Source of the DNA: an uncultured Acidobacteriota bacterium
GTDB lineage: Bacteria; Acidobacteriota; Thermoanaerobaculia; Multivoradales; UBA5704
Direction: 5' to 3'
DNA length: 64,000 nt
NCBI GenBank assembly: GCA_963770895.1
Contig: CAVYRF010000001.1
Location: 1,952,001 to 2,016,000, forward strand
The notes beneath the pieces are model-generated. The model was not told where the DNA came from and did not search any database. It saw only the letters and a list, made by a program, of their open reading frames with translations. Of this stretch, positions 1 through 55,432 are shown in pieces. Numbering within the stretch: position 1 is the first letter of the stretch; each line of letters opens with the position of its first letter. Position numbers and translations under genes: made by a program.

Positions 1-1491
1 CGGGATGCCGCGGCGGCGCACCAGGCGCGGCAGGCTGGCCGCCAGGCCGCCCAGGTGATGGACGTGCACCAGCTGGGGGCGCGTCTCATCCAGCAGGCGC
101 ATCAGCTCCAGCTCGACCGGCCGGCTGGACAGGGCGTTGCGCGAGCGCGGATCGCGCTCGTCGAAGTTGCGCACCAGCAGGCGCACGCGCGCGCCGGCGT
201 CGAGCAGCTCCACGGCGTCCCCCAGGCCGCGGGCGGGGTCGGCGATGCGGCTCAGCACGGTGACGTCGCGGTGGGCGGCCTGGCGGCGCACCAGCCAGGC
301 GGCGTACAGCTCGGTGCCGGCATGATTCCACGGCGGCCAGCCGTGCACGATGTGCAGCACCCGCTGGGGGCCGCCGGCCCGCCGCCCGCCGCCGCCGGTG
401 CCGCTGGTTCCCAATCCACCGCTGCTGCCGCGGGTGATGCCGGTGCCGCTGCCATCGCCCCTTCCCGCGCCGTCGGCTTCGCCGCCGTCGCGCGTTCGGC
501 CCGGCGGCAGGAGCGCCGCGATCACGCGCTCGCGCAGCGGCCGCAACGCGTCGTCGTGCAGGAAGCGGGCGACGGTGCGGACGTATTCGGGGTGGAGCCG
601 GGCCAGGCTGCGATGGGCGGCGGCGACGCGGCGGCGGCGCGAGGTGCCGAAGCTGCGGTGCCCTTCGTGGAAGATGAACGTGGCGTCGTCCAGGACGTGG
701 GCATAGCCGGCTTTGAGCGCCCGCATGCAGAATTCACTCTCTTCGCCGTATCCCAGACCGAAGCTGGCGCTGTCGAACGGCCCCAGCGCGGCCAGCGCCT
801 TGCGCTTGATGTACAGGCAGACGCCGACGCCGGTCGGCAGGCGCGGATAGACGCGCTGCGAGCGCTCTTCGACCAGGCGCGCGAAGCGTTCCAGGTCCCA
901 CCCCGCGGGCAGCGCGTTGGACTCCAGGAAGCGCGGCAGCGAGCAGATGGTGGCGCTGTTGGAAAAGGGGGTGACGGTGGCGATCTCGGGCGCCGACCAG
1001 GCGGCTCGCTGCAGCTTTTCCAACCAGCCCGCGGTGACCTGGGTGTCGCTGTTGAGCAGCACCACGTCGTTGCCGCTCGCCGCCATCCCCAGGTTGACCG
1101 CCGCCACGAAGCCCGCCCGCTCCGCTTGCCGCAGCACGACGACTCCTGCCGCAGCCGTCGCGGTCGTCGCGGCCGTCGCGCCGGCCCCGCCGGGCGTCAG
1201 CTCGCCGCAGATCTCGGCCACCCGCTCCGCGACCGCGCCGGGCTGCGGCCCGTCGAGCACCAACACCAGCCGGTGGCGCGTCAGGTCGGTGTGAGCGGCG
1301 AGCGACCGCAGGCAGCGCCCCAACGCCTCGGCGGCGCCATAGACCGGCACGATGACGTCGATCGCCCCCGGCGCCCCGTCGGCGCCCACGCGCGCCGCAT
1401 CGCCCGCGAGCGGCAGCGCCTCCGCCCGCGGCACCAGGCGCCTTAGCAAGAGCCGCATCGGAGCCTGGCGGTCGGAAAGGGCGGCGCGCAT
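1..1491 (-). CDS. Glycosyltransferase, GT2 domain followed by a GT4-like N-terminal domain; 3' end lies outside the window
   Basis: Manual translation (absent from ORF track because it runs off the edge): IDVIVPVYGA, GFVAAVNLG, DVVLLNSDT, FGLGYGEESEFCMRA, then RVLHIVHGWPPWNHAGTELY and PQLVHVHHL. Start is ATG 1491 or 1458. Confidence 0.85.
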   Translation of the reverse strand, partial: MRAALSDRQAPMRLLLRRLVPRAEALPLAGDAARVGADGAPGAIDVIVPVYGAAEALGRCLRSLAAHTDLTRHRLVLVLDGPQPGAVAERVAEICGELTPGGAGATAATTATAAAGVVVLRQAERAGFVAAVNLGMAASGNDVVLLNSDTQVTAGWLEKLQRAAWSAPEIATVTPFSNSATICSLPRFLESNALPAGWDLERFARLVEERSQRVYPRLPTGVGVCLYIKRKALAALGPFDSASFGLGYGEESEFCMRALKAGYAHVLDDATFIFHEGHRSFGTSRRRRVAAAHRSLARLHPEYVRTVARFLHDDALRPLRERVIAALLPPGRTRDGGEADGAGRGDGSGTGITRGSSGGLGTSGTGGGGRRAGGPQRVLHIVHGWPPWNHAGTELYAAWLVRRQAAHRDVTVLSRIADPARGLGDAVELLDAGARVRLLVRNFDERDPRSRNALSSRPVELELMRLLDETRPQLVHVHHLGGLAASLPRLVRRRGIP

Positions 1492-1614
1492 CGGCAAAAT
1501 ACCGCCGGCAAGCTATCACGCCCGCCGCCGCCGCCGTCGCCGCCGCCTAGCGTCCTGACTCAGTGTTCGTCGTGGGTGCGGCGCCCCGCACCTTGACCAC
1601 GGGCGAGCCCGGGC

Positions 1615-1788
1615 TCAGCCGCAGGCGACCCGGCAAGTGATGTAGGGGCAGGTCTGGAAGGTGTTGCACTGAGCGGTGCACGGGTCGGCGCCGGTGATGA
1701 AGCCCGCTGCTGCATCTTTCAGGCCCGGCCGGCTGAGATTCGCCAGGGTTTCGCGGTTGAGATGGAGCGTCTGCATCTGCTTCTTCAT
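1615..1788 (-). CDS. 57-aa RiPP (lanthipeptide-like) precursor peptide
   Basis: GGAGG RBS, then MKKQMQTLHLNRETLANLSRPGLKDAAAG-FITGADPCTAQCNTFQTCPYITCRVACG. LxLxRx5L leader; core has 5 Cys and 5 Thr. Confidence 0.8.
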   Translation of the reverse strand: MKKQMQTLHLNRETLANLSRPGLKDAAAGFITGADPCTAQCNTFQTCPYITCRVACG

Positions 1789-1946
1789 GGATGCCTCCGA
1801 GTCGACCGGTGCGTAGGTGCTGTCCGGTGTGCAGGGTCCTATGGATTGGACAGCCGCTCGCTCTGGTGCCGCAATCCCTTACACAAGGCAGTGCTCCGAT
1901 CGGAACCGCCGTGGACAGGAGACGGGGGCCGGCCGGCGCCGCCGCA

Positions 1947-2666
1947 TCAGACCGGAATCTCGAAGCGATAGCCGACGCCGGGCTCGGTGACGATGAGGCG
2001 CGGGTGCAGGACGTCGGTCTCGATCTTGCGGCGCAGGTTGGCCAGGTGGACCTGCAGGGGGTGCTGGCCGGCGGACGCCTGGCCGGCGCCGCGGATGGCG
2101 GCCAGCAGCTGGGCGTGGTTCAGGGTGCGTCCAGGGTGCAGCACCAGGGCACGCAGCAGGCTCCATTCGACGGGGGTGAGGTGCACCGGGACGCTCTGTT
2201 TCTTGAGCGTGCGGGCGTCCAGGTCCAGCTCCAGGTCGCCGATGGCCAAGGGCTCGGCGTGCGGCGGCGGCGGCAGGGTGCGCGTCCGGCGCAGGCAGGC
2301 ATGCAGGCGCGCGATCAGCTCGATGGTGCTGAAGGGCTTGGTGATGAAGTCGTCGGCGGCGGCTTCCAGCAGCTCCACCTTGTCGTGTTCCGAATGGCGC
2401 GCCGACAGCACCACGATCGGCGCCTGCGACCAGCGGCGGAGCGCCTGGCAGACTTCCAGGCCGGCGGCGTCGGGCAGGCCCAGGTCCAGGATGATCAGCT
2501 CGGGCTGGCGCGCCGCGGCCAGGTCGATCCCTTCGCGGGCGGTGCCTGCCTCCAGCACCTTGAACTCCGGCGCCAGCGCGCGCCGCAGGGCGCGTCGGAT
2601 CGGCACCTCGTCGTCGATGACCAGGATCGTGGCCGGCCGCCCACCGGGCGCCGGGCCGGGCTTCAG
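1947..2666 (-). CDS. OmpR/KdpE-family response regulator, probable CTG start
   Basis: ILVIDDE, LIILDLGLPD, ADDFITKPF, winged helix HLTPVEWSLL...LIVTEPGVGYRF. No ATG/GTG/TTG found near the receiver start. Confidence 0.85.
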   Translation of the reverse strand: MKPGPAPGGRPATILVIDDEVPIRRALRRALAPEFKVLEAGTAREGIDLAAARQPELIILDLGLPDAAGLEVCQALRRWSQAPIVVLSARHSEHDKVELLEAAADDFITKPFSTIELIARLHACLRRTRTLPPPPHAEPLAIGDLELDLDARTLKKQSVPVHLTPVEWSLLRALVLHPGRTLNHAQLLAAIRGAGQASAGQHPLQVHLANLRRKIETDVLHPRLIVTEPGVGYRFEIPV

Positions 2667-5600
2667 GCGGCCTCCAGGGAGGCGTCCTCGCTCCGGGCGG
2701 CGACGGCGCGCGCCTGCCGCGCCTCGACCCAGCGCCAGGCGATGACGCGCAGCGGCGGTTGCAGCAGCCGGGTGAGGATGGCCAGCTGCAAGGAGCCGCC
2801 GATGACGACGATGGCCAGCGGCCGCTGGGTCTGCGCGCCGATGCCGTGCGACAGCGCGGCGGGGAGCAGCCCCAGGGTGGCGACCAGGGTGGTCATCAGC
2901 ACCGGCCGGAACCGCTTGGCGGCCGCCTGCCGCGCCGCCTCTTCGTTGGACACGCCGCTCGCGTGCAGCTGCTGGGCGTAGCTGATCATCAGCAGGGCGT
3001 CCTGCACCGCGATGCCGAAGATCGAGATGAACCCCATGGCCGCCGACACCGACAGCGGCTCGCCGGCGATGAGCAGCGCCAGCAGCCCCCCGGTCACCGC
3101 GACGGGGATGCTGATCAGCACCAGCGCCGTGTCGATCCAGTTGCGCACGCTCGAATAGACCAGCAGCGCGACCAGCAGCACGGTGATCGGCACGATCAGC
3201 TTCAGGCGCTCCTCGGCGTCGTGCAGCTCGTTGACCTCGCCGGCCCAGGCCAGGTTGATGTCGGGCGACAGCGGCACCTGCCGGGCGATGCGGCGCTGCG
3301 CCTCGGCGATCGTCCCCGCCAGGTCCCTGCCGCGCACCGAGAACTTGACCGGCGTGTAGCGCCGGCCGTCTTCGCGATAGACCACGGTGGCGCCGTCCTC
3401 GGTCGAGACGCTGGCCACCTCGCCCAAGGGGATCTGGCTGCCATCGGGCGTCGCCACGGTGATGCGCTTGAGCGCGGCGATGCTGCCGCGGTCCTGCTCG
3501 CGCCAGCGGACGACCAGGTTGAAGCTCTTTTCGCCCTCGTAGACCTGGGTGACGGCCTGGCCGCCGATCGCCGCCTGCACCACCGCCGCGACGTCGCCGG
3601 TGTTGAGGCCGTAGCGCTCGCACTGCACGCGGTCGGGCACGATGCGGATGCTGGGCTGGCCGAGGCTGCGAAACACTCCCGGCTCGGCGATGCCGCGGAC
3701 CCCGGCCATCACGCCCTGGATCGCATCGGCGGCGCGGTCGTTGTCGGCGAGGTCGGGGCCGATCACCTTGACGCTGTTCTCTCCCTTGACCCCCGACAGC
3801 GCCTCTTCCACGTTGTCTGAGATGTATTGCGAGAAGTTGAAGATGGCGCCCGGAAACTCGGCGGCGAACTGGCGCGCCAGCTGGGCGGTGAGCTTCTCCT
3901 TGGTCAGCCCGCGCGGCCACTCGCCGAACGGCTGGAGCGGCGCGAACAGCTCGATGTTGGAAAAGCCCGCCACGTCGGTGCCGTCGTCGGGTCTGCCGAG
4001 CTGCGACACCACGGTCAGGACCTCAGGGTGGCTGAGCAGGATCTGCCGCAGGCGGGGCACCTGCTGCATCGACTCTTCGAGCGACACGGAAGTGGGCAGG
4101 GTGGCGCGGATCCAGAAGTTGCCCTCTTCCAGCTTGGGCATGAACTCCTTGCCCAGCAGCGGCCACAGCGCGACGCAGGCGACGACCGGAATCAAGCACA
4201 GCGCGACCGCCGCCCGCGGGCGCCGCAGCGCCGCCTCGAACAGCGGGTCGTAGACGCGGTGGAGCAGGTGCATCAACGCGTGCTGTTCGTCGTGGTCGCG
4301 CACCGACAGCACGCGCGAGCTCGCCGCCGGCGTCAGCAGCAGCGCCAGCAGGATGGCGCCGCCGATGGCGAAGGCGTAGGTGTGGGCCATAGGGCGGAAG
4401 ATCTGGCCGGCCACCCCGGTCAGCGTGAACAGAGGCAGGAACGCCACCGCGATGATCAGGGTGGAGAAGCCCATCGGCCTGCCGACCTCGACGGCGGCGT
4501 CCAGGATGTGGCCATCCATGGTGCGCCTGTCGTCGTCGCGCCCGCGCAGCTGGCGGAACACATTTTCCATCATGATGACGGTCGAATCGACGACGATGCC
4601 GAAGTCGACCGCGCCCAGCGAGATCAGGTTGGCGGGGGTGCCCAAAAGCACCATGCCGATGAAGGCGCAGAGCAGGGCCAACGGGATGTTGAGCGCGGTC
4701 AGCAGCGCGGCGCGCAGGTTGGCCAGAAAGAAGATCAGCACCAGCGTCACCAGCGCCATGCCGATGAGCAGGTTTTCGAGCACCGTGTGGGTCGTCACGC
4801 CGACCAGCGCGCCGCGGTCGTAGTAGGGCGCGATCTCCATGCCCGGCGGCAGCAGGTGCTCGCGGCGGATGATGCGCAGCCGCTCCTTCACGCCCCTGAG
4901 CGTGGCGTCGGTCTGGCCGCCGTAGCGCATCAGGACGACGCCTTCGACCACCTCGTCGGCGGCGTCCTTGCCGACCTGGCCCAGGCGCGGCGCGTGCCCC
5001 AGCTCGACCGCCGCGACGTCGCGCACCCGCACCGCCACGCCCTTCTGCTCCAGGACCACGACGTCCTCGATGTTCTTGAGCGAGCTGATCAGGCCGATGC
5101 CGCGGATGGTGAACGCCTGGGCGCCGAGGGTGAGGCGCTGGCCGCCGACGTTCTGGTTGGCGTTGGCGATGGCGGCTTCGACCTGCGCCAGCGTCACGCC
5201 GCGGGCGCGCAGCAGGAAGGGGTTGACGTCGACGTGGTACTCCTTGGCCAGGCCGCCGAAGCTGGTCACGTCGATGACGCCCGGCACCTGCTTCCACTGC
5301 CGCTCCAGGATCCAGTCCTGGGCGGTCTTGAGGTCGGTCAGCGAGTAACCCTTGCCGCGCAGCGTATAGCGGTAGATCTCGCCGATCGCGTTCCACGGCG
5401 ACAGCGAGGCCTGGATGCCGCTCGGCAGCTGCACGAACTGCAGCCGGTTGATCACCTCCTGGCGAGCGCGCTCGTAGTCGGTGCCCCACTTGAAGTAGCA
5501 CTTCACATCCGCCAGCCCGAACAGCGACTGCGAACGCACGTGGTCGAGCCCCGCCATGCCGGCCAGCCCGGCCTCGAGCGGGATGGTGACGTAGCGCTCG

Positions 5601-5782
5601 GTCTCCTCGGCGCTCCAGCCGGGGGGCTGCGCGATCACCTCGACGAGCGGCGGGCAGGGGTTGGGATAGGCCTCGACCGGCAGCTTTTTCCAGGCGTACA
5701 GGCCGCACGCCGCCAGCACCACCGCGGCGGCGACCACCAGGTTGCGATTGCGCAATGCGAACGCGACCAGCCGCCGGATCAT
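2663..5782 (-). CDS. CusA/CzcA-family heavy-metal-type RND efflux permease
   Basis: MIRRLVAFALRNR start; ANLISLGAVDFGIVVDSTVIMMEN, EFMPKLEEG, RFRPVLMTTLVATLGLLP, TQRPLAIVVIGG; about 1039 aa. Confidence 0.93.
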   Translation of the reverse strand: MIRRLVAFALRNRNLVVAAAVVLAACGLYAWKKLPVEAYPNPCPPLVEVIAQPPGWSAEETERYVTIPLEAGLAGMAGLDHVRSQSLFGLADVKCYFKWGTDYERARQEVINRLQFVQLPSGIQASLSPWNAIGEIYRYTLRGKGYSLTDLKTAQDWILERQWKQVPGVIDVTSFGGLAKEYHVDVNPFLLRARGVTLAQVEAAIANANQNVGGQRLTLGAQAFTIRGIGLISSLKNIEDVVVLEQKGVAVRVRDVAAVELGHAPRLGQVGKDAADEVVEGVVLMRYGGQTDATLRGVKERLRIIRREHLLPPGMEIAPYYDRGALVGVTTHTVLENLLIGMALVTLVLIFFLANLRAALLTALNIPLALLCAFIGMVLLGTPANLISLGAVDFGIVVDSTVIMMENVFRQLRGRDDDRRTMDGHILDAAVEVGRPMGFSTLIIAVAFLPLFTLTGVAGQIFRPMAHTYAFAIGGAILLALLLTPAASSRVLSVRDHDEQHALMHLLHRVYDPLFEAALRRPRAAVALCLIPVVACVALWPLLGKEFMPKLEEGNFWIRATLPTSVSLEESMQQVPRLRQILLSHPEVLTVVSQLGRPDDGTDVAGFSNIELFAPLQPFGEWPRGLTKEKLTAQLARQFAAEFPGAIFNFSQYISDNVEEALSGVKGENSVKVIGPDLADNDRAADAIQGVMAGVRGIAEPGVFRSLGQPSIRIVPDRVQCERYGLNTGDVAAVVQAAIGGQAVTQVYEGEKSFNLVVRWREQDRGSIAALKRITVATPDGSQIPLGEVASVSTEDGATVVYREDGRRYTPVKFSVRGRDLAGTIAEAQRRIARQVPLSPDINLAWAGEVNELHDAEERLKLIVPITVLLVALLVYSSVRNWIDTALVLISIPVAVTGGLLALLIAGEPLSVSAAMGFISIFGIAVQDALLMISYAQQLHASGVSNEEAARQAAAKRFRPVLMTTLVATLGLLPAALSHGIGAQTQRPLAIVVIGGSLQLAILTRLLQPPLRVIAWRWVEARQARAVAARSEDASLEAA

Positions 5783-8151
5783 CAGAGCAGTCCCAGCAGG
5801 AAGATGGCGCCGTGCGACGCCACGCGGTCGCCGGGCGCCAGGCCGGTCAGGATCGGCACGCGGCTGCCCGCCAGCTCCTCGCGCGCCACGACGGCGCGGC
5901 GGCGGAAGACGACGCGGCCGTCCGGCGTCGCGCCGCCGGCGACGAAGACGACAGTCTGCTCGCCCTGCCGCAGCAGCGCTTCGCGCGGCACCGTCGGGGT
6001 GCGCCGCGAGGGCGCCGCCAGGCGCGCCATGCCGTACATCTCGGGGGCGAGCAGATGGCCGGGGTTCTGCAGCACGCAGCGCACCCTGGCCGTGCGCGCC
6101 ACCGGGTCCAGGACGTCCGAGATCCAGTCGACGGTGCCGTGGAACTCCCGGCCGGGCCACGCCGCCACCTGCAGCGCCACCGGGTCGCCGACCTTGACGT
6201 GCGGCAGGTCCATCTCGAAGACGTCGCCCAGCAGCCATAGCTCGCCCGCGTCGCCGATGGTGAACAGCTCGACCACGTTGCCGCCGCCGCCGTACTGGCC
6301 CTGCACCTCGAGCCCCGGCGTCGCCAGCCGCGCCGTCACCAGGCCGGCGATCGGGCTGCGCAGGACGAACTGCTGCGACACCCCGGCATCGGCGGCATCG
6401 GCGGCAGCGGTGGCACCGGCAGCCGCGGCGGCACCGGCCGTCGCGCCGCCCTCCGCGGCCTGGGCGGCCGTCGCGCCGCCGGCGCGCAGCAGGCGCGTGC
6501 GCTGCCGGGCGCGGTCGTACTCGGCCCTGGCGCGCAGCAGGTTGTCCTCGGCCGCCTCCAGGTCGCGCTGCACGCCCACCTTGAGCGCCGCGAGCTCGCG
6601 CTGGCGGCGCGCCTCGTGCTCGGCGGCGTCCAGGTCGGCCCGAGCTTTGAGCGTGTCGGCGAAGGCGCTGCCCAGCTCCGGCGACTCGATGACGGCGAGC
6701 GGCGCCCCCCTGGCGACGAGCTGGCCCGGCGCCGCGATCACCTTGGTGATGCGGCCCCCGACCGGCGGAAAGACGTGCGCCACGCGCAGCTCGTCGAAGG
6801 CCAGCCGGCCGCCGATGTCGAGCAGGTCGTCGACCGGCTGGAGCTCGACCGGCGCGATCGCCACCCTGCCGCTGCGCACCTGCTCGCCGCTGACCTCGAC
6901 TTCGCGCTCGGCGGCGCTCGGCGGCGACGCCGCCAGCTGGGCGTCCTCCACCAGCACGCGTTCGCCGTCGGACAAACCGCCCAGCACCTGCACCTGGTCG
7001 CTCGGCGGCACGAGCGGCAGCAGCGCCTGGCTTGCCGCGGCCGGCTGCTGGCGCGACACCGCCCCCGCCGCCGTGGGCGTCTCGATCTTGCGGCGCCGGA
7101 ACACCACCCTGCCGTCGGGCCGCCGCCCGGCCAGCACCCAGGCGAACGATTGATCGCGGATGCGCGCCACCGCCGCGCGCGGCACGGCGAGGGCGCGCAG
7201 CGCCGGCCGCTCGATCGCCACGGCGGCGAACATCTGCGGCTTGAGCAGCCCCGCGGGATTGCGCAGCGCGCACCGCACGCGCGCCGTGCGCAGCGCCGGG
7301 TCGAGCGCCGGCGACACCCAATCGATCTGCCCGGTGAAGACGCGATCGGGCCACGCCAGGACGCGCGCCGCGACGGCCGCGCCCGGCCGCACCGCCGGCA
7401 GGTCCGCCTCGGCGACGTCGGCGTACAGCCACACCGTGTCGATGCTGCCGATGGTGAACAGCTCGACCGCGGTGCCGCCCGAGAACTGCCCCGCGATCTC
7501 GACGCCAGGGTTGACCGAGCGCGCGATGACCCGCCCGGCGATCTGGCTGGTGAGCTGATACGCCTGGGTCACCGCGTCCACCCTGCCGCGCTGCAGCAAG
7601 GTGATGCGCTGCCGCGCCCGCTCCTCCTCGGCCTTGGCGCGCAGATAGGTATCCTGAGCGCTCTCGTAGTCGCGCTCGGCGGCGGCGTTGACCGCCAGCA
7701 GCTTTTTCTGCCGCACCCCGTCGTGCTCGGCGGCCGCCAGGTCGGCGCGCGCCTTCACTTCGTCGGACAGCGCGCTGCCGACGTCGGGCGAAACGATCTC
7801 GGCGAGCGGCGTGCCGCGCGCGACCTGCTGGCCGAGCCGCACCAGGATGCGCGTCACGCGGCCGGACACCGGCGAGAACACGTGCGTCACGCGCGCATCG
7901 TCGAAGTCGATGCGCCCGCCCAGGATCAGCGCCTGCGGCAGCTCCGTGGTGCGCGCCGGGGCGACGTGCGCGGTACCCTGGGCCAGCCGCTCGGGGGCGA
8001 TCCACAGCTGGTCGTCCGGCGGTGTCAGCGTCGGCGACCGCGTCGCGGCCGTCTGCTGGCTGCGCGCGGCGATGCCCATCGCCGCGCCGGCGACGCCGGC
8101 GGTCAGCGCGGAGGCGGTGAGAAGTACGACGCTCCATCGTTTGCGGCGCAT
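5782..8151 (-). CDS. RND membrane-fusion protein (CzcB/CusB-like) with two complete MFP units in tandem
   Basis: MRRKRWSVVLL N-terminal anchor; duplicated motifs FDDARVTHVFSPVSGRV / FDELRVAHVFPPVGGRI, ELFTIG twice, GRVVFRRR twice. Confidence 0.88.
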   Translation of the reverse strand: MRRKRWSVVLLTASALTAGVAGAAMGIAARSQQTAATRSPTLTPPDDQLWIAPERLAQGTAHVAPARTTELPQALILGGRIDFDDARVTHVFSPVSGRVTRILVRLGQQVARGTPLAEIVSPDVGSALSDEVKARADLAAAEHDGVRQKKLLAVNAAAERDYESAQDTYLRAKAEEERARQRITLLQRGRVDAVTQAYQLTSQIAGRVIARSVNPGVEIAGQFSGGTAVELFTIGSIDTVWLYADVAEADLPAVRPGAAVAARVLAWPDRVFTGQIDWVSPALDPALRTARVRCALRNPAGLLKPQMFAAVAIERPALRALAVPRAAVARIRDQSFAWVLAGRRPDGRVVFRRRKIETPTAAGAVSRQQPAAASQALLPLVPPSDQVQVLGGLSDGERVLVEDAQLAASPPSAAEREVEVSGEQVRSGRVAIAPVELQPVDDLLDIGGRLAFDELRVAHVFPPVGGRITKVIAAPGQLVARGAPLAVIESPELGSAFADTLKARADLDAAEHEARRQRELAALKVGVQRDLEAAEDNLLRARAEYDRARQRTRLLRAGGATAAQAAEGGATAGAAAAAGATAAADAADAGVSQQFVLRSPIAGLVTARLATPGLEVQGQYGGGGNVVELFTIGDAGELWLLGDVFEMDLPHVKVGDPVALQVAAWPGREFHGTVDWISDVLDPVARTARVRCVLQNPGHLLAPEMYGMARLAAPSRRTPTVPREALLRQGEQTVVFVAGGATPDGRVVFRRRAVVAREELAGSRVPILTGLAPGDRVASHGAIFLLGLL

Positions 8152-8155
8152 GGCG

Positions 8156-9493
8156 TCACTCCGAAAGCGGGAAGGGGCTGGCTTCGCCCGTGGCCTGGCG
8201 CAGCTGCGCCACCGCCGTCCAGTAGTTGGCGAGGTCCTGGCGGCGCTCGACGTTGGTGGCGACCCAGGTGCGTTCGGCGTCCAGGAAGTCGAGCAGGCTG
8301 GCGGCGCCCTTTTCGTAGAGGATCTTTTCGGCGTCGCGCGCCGTCCTGGCATCGGCGAGCAGCTCCGCGTCCATGCGCTCGATCTGCCGCCGCGCGGCAG
8401 CCAGACCGGCGATGGCGGTCAGCAGGTCGGCGGCCACCTGGGTGTGCGCCTTGTCCTCCAGAGCCTGGGCGGCGGCCAGGTTGGCTTCGGCGCGCCGGAT
8501 CTCCCCCTGCTGGCGATCGAAGATCGGCAGCGGCAGCGACAGGCCGAAGGTGTAGTCGGGCGGCGACACCACGGTGGGCGGGCTGCTCGCCAGGTTGACC
8601 TGGGCGCTGTAGCCGGCCTGCAGCGTCAGGTCGGGCAGGCGCAGGCGGCGCGCCAGGGCCAGCGCCCGCTCCGCCTGCTCGCGGTTCGCCACCGCGGCGC
8701 GCAGGTCCGGGCGCTGCCCGGCGGCCGCGGCCAGCAGGGCCGGCAGGTCCTGGTCGCGGGGGTCGGGCGCCGCGGCAGCGCGGTAGGACAGGTCACCTTG
8801 CGGCGCCAGCGGCACGGCCGGGTCGCGGCGGCCCAGAAAGACCAGCAGGGCGGCGCGCTCCTGGTCGGTGGCGGCCCGCGCCTGCTCGACCGCCTGCTCG
8901 GCCTCGCCCTTTGCCGTCGCCACGCGCGCCACGTCGGCGACGCCGATGGCGCCCAGCTGGTAGCGCGCCTGGTTGAGCTTGAGGGTGTCCTGGTAGGTGG
9001 CCAGGACCTCTTCGGCGAAGCGCAGGTTGTCGCGCGCCAGGAGCGCGCCGATGAAAGCCGACTCCAGCTGGAAGCGCAGGTTGCGCAGCGCGTCGTCCTT
9101 GCCGGCGCGCGCCGCGCGCAGCGCCGCGGCCGCCACGTCGCGGCGCAGCAGCTTCTTGCCCGACAGCAGATCGGACAGGGCGGCGTTGTCGCTCACCCCC
9201 AGGTTGTAGCCGGGCGTGGTGGCGAACTGCGCCCGCGGCACCGCCTGGGCGTAGAGCGCACCGCCCGAAAGCGTCGGATTGGGCGAGGCGGATTGCGCCA
9301 CCAGGTCGCCTTCGGCGCCCAGCGCCGCGGCCTGGGCGACCAGCACGTCGAAGCCCCGTTCGGCCAGCAGGCGCTCGGCCTGCTGCAAGGTGATCGGATC
9401 GGCGGCGGGCGACGCGGCGGTGCCGCCGCCGCCGCCGGCGAGCAGGGCGTGCAGCGCCAGCAAGGCCAGCGCCGCCAGGGGAGCGTTCATCAC
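8156..9493 (-). CDS. TolC/CzcC-family outer-membrane efflux protein
   Basis: Signal peptide, RPDLRAA, LSLPLPIFDRQQGEI, YEKGAASLLDFLDAER; adjacent to MFP and RND genes. Confidence 0.9.
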   Translation of the reverse strand: MMNAPLAALALLALHALLAGGGGGTAASPAADPITLQQAERLLAERGFDVLVAQAAALGAEGDLVAQSASPNPTLSGGALYAQAVPRAQFATTPGYNLGVSDNAALSDLLSGKKLLRRDVAAAALRAARAGKDDALRNLRFQLESAFIGALLARDNLRFAEEVLATYQDTLKLNQARYQLGAIGVADVARVATAKGEAEQAVEQARAATDQERAALLVFLGRRDPAVPLAPQGDLSYRAAAAPDPRDQDLPALLAAAAGQRPDLRAAVANREQAERALALARRLRLPDLTLQAGYSAQVNLASSPPTVVSPPDYTFGLSLPLPIFDRQQGEIRRAEANLAAAQALEDKAHTQVAADLLTAIAGLAAARRQIERMDAELLADARTARDAEKILYEKGAASLLDFLDAERTWVATNVERRQDLANYWTAVAQLRQATGEASPFPLSE

Positions 9494-55276: not shown

Positions 55277-55432
55277 TTAATCCAGTCCGGGAGGGCAGTT
55301 GACCAGGGTGCAGCTGACGCACGCGCTGTGGGGGTTGGAGCCGGTCTCCGCGGCGGCGGCCGCCGACGTGACCGATGCCAGGGAGCGGATCGTTTCGCGG
55401 TGCAGGTTGAGCGTAGCAAGCTTTTTCTTCAC
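55277..55432 (-). CDS. 51-aa RiPP (lanthipeptide-like) precursor peptide
   Basis: AAGGAGGAG RBS, GTG start, MKKKLATLNLHRETIRSLASVTSAAAAAETGSNPHSACVSCTLVNCPPGLD. Confidence 0.8.
   Translation of the reverse strand: MKKKLATLNLHRETIRSLASVTSAAAAAETGSNPHSACVSCTLVNCPPGLD

Follow-up and report, generated by a model that had tools for sequence, protein, structure and literature searches.

A reading frame of 57 codons lies in the window, by which we mean the whole 64,000-nucleotide stretch of DNA that was analysed, on the strand opposite to the one shown (Table 1). Its product is MKKQMQTLHLNRETLANLSRPGLKDAAAGFITGADPCTAQCNTFQTCPYITCRVACG. The putative leader carries an LxLxRx5L box (L8-x-L10-x-R12-x5-L18, LHLNRETLANL), and the tail that follows the residues AAAG, FITGADPCTAQCNTFQTCPYITCRVACG, contains five Cys and five Thr. 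Genes for an OmpR-type response regulator, an AcrB-family pump, and a CusB/HlyD-type adaptor lie upstream on the same strand, across a gap of 158 nt. Downstream of the stop codon, one terminator-like site was found where 0.1 would be expected in shuffled sequence, as a consensus match only. No sigma-70 match was found at the ORF. Its GC contents by codon position (0.54/0.53/0.84) are the signature of a real gene, given the genome GC content of 70.7%. ORF 1615..1788 is a real gene, and every checked detail of the anatomy given in an earlier note on this DNA (a 57-aa ORF with GGAGG, a leader, an AG site, and a core of five Cys and five Thr) proved correct on re-reading. Contigs from four DNA runs of a single study match the window exactly wherever they overlap it and are therefore uninformative on selection or transcripts.

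Table 1. Positions of the features discussed (window coordinates unless a contig is named)
Feature	Position	Strand	Basis or remark
Precursor gene, 57 aa, ATG start	1615..1788 (stop codon 1615-1617)	-	ORF reading and leader profile
Leader part, residues 1-29, MKKQMQTLHLNRETLANLSRPGLKDAAAG	1702..1788	-	Box at residues 8-18; cleavage point after AG predicted
Core part, residues 30-57, 5 Cys and 5 Thr	1618..1701	-	ORF reading and paralogue alignment
Shine-Dalgarno site GGAGG, 5-nt spacer to ATG	1794..1798	-	Sequence reading
Terminator-like hairpin (8 pairs, 6 of them G-C) and T-run, 3' of the stop codon	1496..1527 (scan match 1527->1506)	-	Consensus match
Family 2 glycosyltransferase, next gene after the terminator-like site	1..1497		
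Second family member, 51 aa, GTG start, core with 4 Cys	55277..55432	-	Leader profile, E 1.8e-7
Nonribosomal peptide synthetase (NRPS) gene, 2294 aa	55551-62432		Divergent from the second family member, 119 nt apart
Stand-alone lantibiotic-dehydratase C-terminal (elimination) domain, 485-aa frame, no N-terminal domain beside it	G000:C2:3339409-3340281	-	

The assignment of LxLxKx5L to class I lanthipeptide leaders in the earlier note agrees with Walker et al. (2020; PMC7268733), who describe leaders of this type in class I clusters that also have a C39 protease, with GG as a frequent leader end. The same note had proposed a check with lanthipeptide leader models. The outcome was divided: NF038153, the NCBIfam class I lanthipeptide leader model, does align with residues 1-28 of the peptide (E 0.0042), but at 17.2 bits it stays below the cutoff of 22. 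Ten of 40 paralogues match the same model at an E value of ≤0.01, the best at 1.8e-6. A Pfam scan of the peptide gave zero matches, and no leader of the Nif11 or NHLP type was among the Pfam and NCBIfam matches of the peptide and its paralogues. The ESM Atlas returned leads at 0.85 to 0.87, one of them a cluster named class I lanthipeptide leader domain. No synthetase is near the gene, as had been claimed: none of the genome's matches to PF04738, PF05147, PF13575, or PF03412 falls inside the window.

A family of precursor genes with a common leader

Searching the host genome (G000; 8.16 Mb in three contigs) with the single peptide returned paralogues down to an E value of 1.3e-6. The strict pattern M(K/R)K...LxLx(R/K)(E/D)(T/S)(L/I/V)xxL matched 58 small ORFs, and a profile built from the leaders of these ORFs was run on 99,356 stop-to-stop segments of the genome (E < 0.05, start codon required). 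It retrieved 96 ORFs with a start codon, with two further matches lacking one, and placed ORF 1615..1788, itself among the profile seeds, sixth genome-wide (E 1.0e-12). A second profile, made from 40 full peptides, gave 93 matches. The earlier note had suggested a search of this kind, for small ORFs with the leader motif, and had missed the family that the search brings to light.

The 96 family ORFs are genes rather than chance frames. A site resembling a Shine-Dalgarno (SD) sequence is present in the last 20 nt before 90 of them, compared with 178 of 2,000 random 20-mers, and the third codon position of the called frame is the GC maximum in all 96. In an alignment of the peptide with 39 paralogues, L8, L10, E13, T14, L18, and L23 are conserved at ≥90%. 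The conserved leader residues are encoded by many synonymous codons (Glu by GAA 47 times and GAG 40 times, Arg by six codons), which indicates that selection acts on the protein. Under a separate regular-expression rule, the leaders end in GG, AG, AA, or GA.

The family is also common in public data. At an E value of ≤0.001, a library of 1.84 billion proteins contains 10,154 family clusters, and the ten public copies that were looked up are either unnamed or called “hypothetical protein.” A single-peptide search of a set of 5.8 billion proteins returned ORF 1615..1788 itself and nothing else. Two public metagenome representatives (P0002 and P0005) are two-cassette precursors, in which the entire leader-plus-core unit is tandemly repeated within one protein.

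Family leaders are rich in Lys, Arg, and Leu and contain 0.6% Cys; the cores have a mean length of 27 residues, with 15.4% Cys and 22% Ser plus Thr. Ser and Thr together equal or outnumber Cys in 91 of 93 genome cores and in all 148 public representatives. The cores are diverse, with a mean pairwise identity of 0.24 in the host genome and values of >0.6 in one of 4,278 pairs; for the core of ORF 1615..1788, the best identity to any paralogue is 0.50. Against per-core shuffles, Ser or Thr is enriched exactly five residues before Cys, both in the host genome family (z 5.8) and in the public representatives (z 9.4, n = 146), and neither set shows enrichment five residues after Cys. A one-sided spacing like this would be expected if Ser/Thr residues pair with Cys residues on their C-terminal side. 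T3..C8 and T22..C27 in the core of ORF 1615..1788 match this [ST]x4C spacing. The nisin-like lipid II motif C[ST]P[GS]C occurs in none of the 93 family cores.

The genes are scattered over the genome. The nearest LanB, LanC-like, or C39 match is at most 5 kb away for seven of the 96 and at most 20 kb away for 14 (median distance, 129 kb), and cluster-based genome mining misses nearly all such precursors because the other 82 are >20 kb from any candidate enzyme gene. For ORF 1615..1788, a distance of 170,383 bp separates the gene from its nearest candidate, a C39 ABC transporter; the complete LanB and its LanC are on a different contig, and at their locus the closest family member is ≥16.5 kb distant. 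The 592 ORFs flanking the 96 paralogues include no strong recurrent neighbor, and neither a metal gene nor a transposase recurs among them. MacB/FtsX duplicated permeases, which have 57 matching regions in the genome, are weakly enriched within 4 kb of family precursors (13 versus 6.8 expected; P = 0.02, uncorrected).

Several further ideas about the family were rejected. NRPS genes seemed to be frequent neighbors, yet eight were observed where 16.4 were expected. A shared promoter was not apparent, as no upstream k-mer other than the SD sequence was enriched and a strict sigma-54-like pattern was present at one of the 96 genes. Spread by a mobile element was likewise discarded: DNA similarity of the locus of ORF 1615..1788 to paralogues is confined to the SD site and the first ∼15 codons, and there are no meaningful flanking repeats. 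Elsewhere in the genome, at L032:9400-12265 (G000:C2 about 3,320,400-3,323,265), a precursor with a long C/T-repeat core precedes two LanC-like genes and a MacB-type permease, and the surrounding region contains an integrase, an IS21-type pair, a serine recombinase, and a group II intron reverse transcriptase.

The copy at 1615..1788 has a history of its own. A back-translated scan of the species-genome collection found no orthologue, and no family ORF was found at any of eight syntenic flanks in G001, G002, G003, and G009 or at the flank in G005. For other family members, orthologues do exist, and their Cys positions are conserved. The glycosyltransferase block (1-1497) and the regulator/efflux block (1947-8352) are on different contigs or far apart in five genomes of the genus, so that the gene sits at a rearrangement junction. 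It is not a fresh copy, since at the DNA level it resembles its paralogues only over the SD site and the first ∼15 codons. The copy is thus lineage specific, yet it is intact and well signalled.

Candidate enzymes and the partners of the leader in other genomes

The host genome contains two matches to PF04738, 14 to PF05147, two to PF13575, and nine to PF03412. The sole complete LanB (1,177 aa, both domains; contig C2, about 5,180,000-5,183,600) is adjoined by a divergent LanC, and the two together occupy about 5,178,800-5,183,600. A LanB-like gene with the N domain only adjoins a gene of 2,969 aa, the latter being within the genome-wide matches to an NRPS query, and an elimination domain stands alone (Table 1). 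There are two LanMs, both with a CHG motif and neither with CCG, two LanC-like proteins of ∼1,030 aa, one of them of the RamC/kinase type, and another eight LanC-like genes that stand alone. The genome also has three strong C39-ABC genes, none of them near ORF 1615..1788. The genome free of maturases that the earlier note had named as a counterargument is therefore not what was seen, since one complete LanB with a LanC and two LanMs are present.

Five of the stand-alone LanC-like genes abut a family precursor (145 to 316 nt) and have no dehydratase beside them; if they are cyclases, dehydration would have to come from elsewhere. In one locus, a LanC-like gene (L029:9036-10262, minus strand) lies just 3' of a precursor (L029:10272-10463) and has Cys-Cys-Gly in place of the usual Cys-His-Gly. 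A subfamily with the leader sequence ETLLPL is also found next to LanC-like genes: L030:4906-5058 (minus strand) adjoins L030:5170-6435, and L031:10152-10301 (plus strand) adjoins L031:8677-10035. The cores of this subfamily are without Cys and rich in His, Val, and Pro, and the LanC-like genes at these two loci are without the usual Cys-x-Gly and Cys-His-Gly zinc-ligand motifs. A different chemistry may operate here on the same kind of leader.

Among species genomes, the nearest orthologues of the complete LanB are 56 to 73% identical and come from records titled Thermoanaerobaculia or Acidobacteriota; others occur in Holophagales, myxobacteria, and a few actinobacterial metagenome-assembled genomes. 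A family ORF lies within 6 kb at 26 of 77 LanB-orthologue loci, in several phyla, and several such ORFs abut LanB. The gene order is precursor-LanC-LanB in G024, six tandem precursors-LanC-LanB in G021, and LanB, two precursors, and two LanC genes in G019. G002 and G024 each gave a single family match, and in both it is next to LanC/LanB, at about 2 kb in G002. C39 exporters are found a few kilobases from LanB/LanC in G015, G021, G023, and G024. The six precursors of G021 (L145:7493-9159, minus strand) have near-identical leaders and related cores that all end in Cys-Cys, in a compact version of the system. None of the seven closest LanB orthologues (L053 to L059) has a family ORF within 6 kb and the host's own LanB locus has no close one, so that in this lineage the link between enzyme and substrate rests on co-occurrence and on the structural model.

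Family members were counted in 31 related genomes with 150 candidates scored per genome, and the numbers of matches are lower bounds. Homologous small ORFs, whose absence from relatives had been proposed as an argument against the peptide, were found in 19 of the 31 genomes, including nine of nine of the genus, with from at least 1 to at least 65 matches each. PF04738 is present in all 19 family-positive relatives, in 18 of them at an E value of <1e-100, the exception being G005 (84% complete). Of the 12 family-negative relatives, eight are without PF04738 and only G023 has a strong match. LanM was not found in five family-positive relatives (G002, G008, G017, G018, and G021), of which G018 is 100% complete and has at least 35 family members and G021 is 98% complete; it is present in three of the 12 family-negative relatives (G014, G028, and G030). 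These genomes are kin, so the counts are not independent, and the pattern is suggestive rather than a statistical test. C39 occurs in 27 of the 31 relatives, and its presence therefore says little. In an even sample of the phylum, six of 151 genomes, including G000 and the unpublished G173, have a match at an E value of ≤1e-5, and besides G000 only G140 exceeds two matches (13), which indicates that the expansion is concentrated in this taxonomic family and its near kin.

LanB residues 1 to 800 (with an alignment of 26 orthologues) and the precursor peptide (with an alignment of 40) were modelled as a pair. The complex scored 0.63 (runs, 0.63, 0.64, and 0.23), compared with 0.01 for the best of three controls; of 157 solved complexes, 116 attain the score mark used, as do two of 215 mismatched pairs. 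Agreement of contacts between runs was ≥35%, and partner pLDDT was ≥38, with the fold of the partner uncertain. The confident modelled contacts join peptide residues 6 to 19, which span the conserved box, to LanB residues 210 to 218 and to helices around residues 275 to 290. R210, H213, and L214 of LanB, invariant in the alignment, are all within the contact stretch. The model thus suggests that the leader box docks as a strand on a conserved leader-binding region of LanB. A comparable complex of the nisin leader with its dehydratase has reportedly been solved, and the favorable score may consequently mirror likeness to it and is no proof that the product of ORF 1615..1788 binds.

Interpretation and comparison with known systems

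On the sequence and modelling evidence, ORF 1615..1788 is probably a class I LanA precursor that is made alone and modified in trans, one of ∼96 dispersed paralogues. Modification by a distant LanB/LanC, the main suggestion of the earlier note, gains support from the occurrence of the leader beside LanB/LanC orthologues elsewhere, from the co-occurrence of family and LanB domain in 19 of 19 genomes, and from the modelled docking. We infer the chemical steps, the cleavage site, the exporter, and the acting LanC as follows. The LHLNRETLANL handle would dock on the sole complete LanB by adding a strand to its leader-binding region, and LanB would then dehydrate Thr residues of the core through glutamyl-tRNA, which class I dehydratases use (PMC9993889). 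Either the LanC adjoining LanB or one of the eight stand-alone LanC-like proteins would join the five Cys to dehydro residues, forming thioether rings. The leader would be cut after AAAG, probably by one of the three C39-peptidase ABC exporters and during export. As the ∼96 paralogues combine a common leader with unrelated cores, one set of enzymes would supply the organism with a whole library of ring peptides.

It is possible, but we consider it unlikely, that the leader is read by some synthetase other than LanB, be it a class II LanM, a LanKC-like enzyme, or several enzymes sharing one leader. The second-best family member in the profile search (C2:4304002) has LanM1 and an ABC transporter at a distance of 3.5 kb, and LanM may therefore share the leader; three other members are 13 to 14 kb from the RamC_N/kinase/LanC-like protein. 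LanM also occurs in 14 of the 19 family-positive relatives, and within the same bacterial class a LanM and a GMC oxidoreductase modify a Cys-rich precursor, as shown in PMC13083261. Against a synthetase other than LanB stand the five family-positive genomes in which LanM was not found, G018 and G021 among them, and the three that have LanM and no family member (G014, G028, and G030). In addition, both LanMs of the host are of the ordinary CHG type rather than the ProcM-type CCG, and the canonical operons place the leader with LanC and LanB.

It seems rather improbable that a C39 ABC transporter cuts and exports the peptide in unmodified form and that the peptide then serves as a bacteriocin or signal with disulfide bonds, or as a Cys metal binder tied to the RND efflux operon. 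A leader type ending in GG, AG, or AA would suit it, as would the three strong C39-ABC genes of the genome and the position of the ORF 158 nt 3' of the OmpR-type regulator, AcrB-family pump, and CusB/HlyD-type adaptor on the same strand. Ser/Thr, however, tracks Cys in both number and directional spacing, which would be needless in an unmodified Cys peptide, and the partners of the leader elsewhere are LanB and LanC. As for metal binding, which the earlier note had offered as its alternative, nothing beyond the adjacent efflux operon speaks for it: this neighborhood is not common to the paralogues or to relatives, the efflux genes stand without an adjoining family ORF at all eight flanks in G001, G002, G003, and G009, and no metal gene recurs beside the 96 paralogues. 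We regard it as very improbable that ORF 1615..1788 is a recent, silent, or decaying duplicate that has gone out of use. That no orthologue was found in representative species genomes or beside the syntenic blocks in four genomes of the genus, and that the gene is located at a junction of gene blocks that are separate in relatives, would fit such a fate; the frame is nevertheless intact, with a strong SD site, a terminator-like site, a GC content of 0.84 at third positions, and all conserved leader positions kept, and the DNA similarity to paralogues stops after the SD site and the first ∼15 codons.

If the gene is indeed a class I precursor modified in trans, the system as a whole can tentatively be proposed as a class I counterpart of the prochlorosin system, in which one LanB would serve ∼100 dispersed, hypervariable precursors per genome and stand-alone LanC-like cyclases would each stand beside one. 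To our knowledge, combinatorial lanthipeptide libraries made by one enzyme come only from class II enzymes of marine cyanobacteria. The proposed system would surpass in size any lanthipeptide precursor repertoire seen so far in a single genome, and no earlier library of this kind would rest on two-enzyme class I machinery. No published account of this precursor expansion was found in the full-text literature searched, which was mostly open access. The case, if true, would combine class I chemistry, soil bacteria, dozens to ∼100 precursors per genome, and a family of >10,000 public sequence clusters. As a second, independent library, it would allow the question of why cells maintain such libraries to be approached by comparison, and it would point to a substrate-tolerant LanB/LanC pair for peptide engineering.

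ProcM-type LanMs are marked by CCG zinc ligands, and prochlorosin-type leaders are of the Nif11 or NHLP kind. Like prochlorosins with ProcM and SyncA with SyncM, the present family has dozens of precursor genes per genome, most of them distant from the enzyme, and a conserved leader with hypervariable cores. SyncA substrates of marine picocyanobacteria are reported to number up to 79. Unlike prochlorosins, the family associates with LanB/LanC and not with a single LanM, its leader is neither Nif11 nor NHLP, the host LanMs are without CCG, several stand-alone LanC-like genes each adjoin one precursor, and neither a transposase nor any other neighbor was found to recur beside the genes. With nisin-type lantibiotics (NisB/NisC), the system would share the two-enzyme logic and a leader box modelled as an added strand on the dehydratase, an addition that presumably resembles the solved nisin leader-dehydratase complex. 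The nisin-type leader, in contrast, has an FNLD box, and the cores of the present family are without the lipid II motif and their genes are dispersed.

The tha/the clusters of Thermoanaerobaculia, in which LanM and a GMC oxidoreductase modify a Cys-rich precursor and form thiazoles (PMC13083261, a 2026 paper), are from the same bacterial class, to go by the titles of the nearest LanB relatives, and likewise combine a leader with a Cys-rich core. They are set apart in having precursors in cis with a class II enzyme and the thiazole at a Gly-Cys motif. As this chemistry occurs in the same class, other tailoring of the family cores is possible.

A further resemblance is to the L1a class I precursors (NF038153, the Bacteroidota type). 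Both have a Lys-rich N-terminal start, an LxLx(K/R)x5L box, a Gly-type leader end, and a core with Cys and Ser/Thr, and family members in other genomes lie beside LanB/LanC, often with a C39 exporter. ORF 1615..1788 differs in having Arg for Lys in its box and a leader that ends in AG rather than GG, in not being encoded with LanB/LanC, with no synthetase within 170 kb, and in having a high-GC host and ∼95 dispersed paralogues. Its score beneath the NF038153 cutoff suggests a diverged relative that would work like the L1a family rather than a curated member of it.
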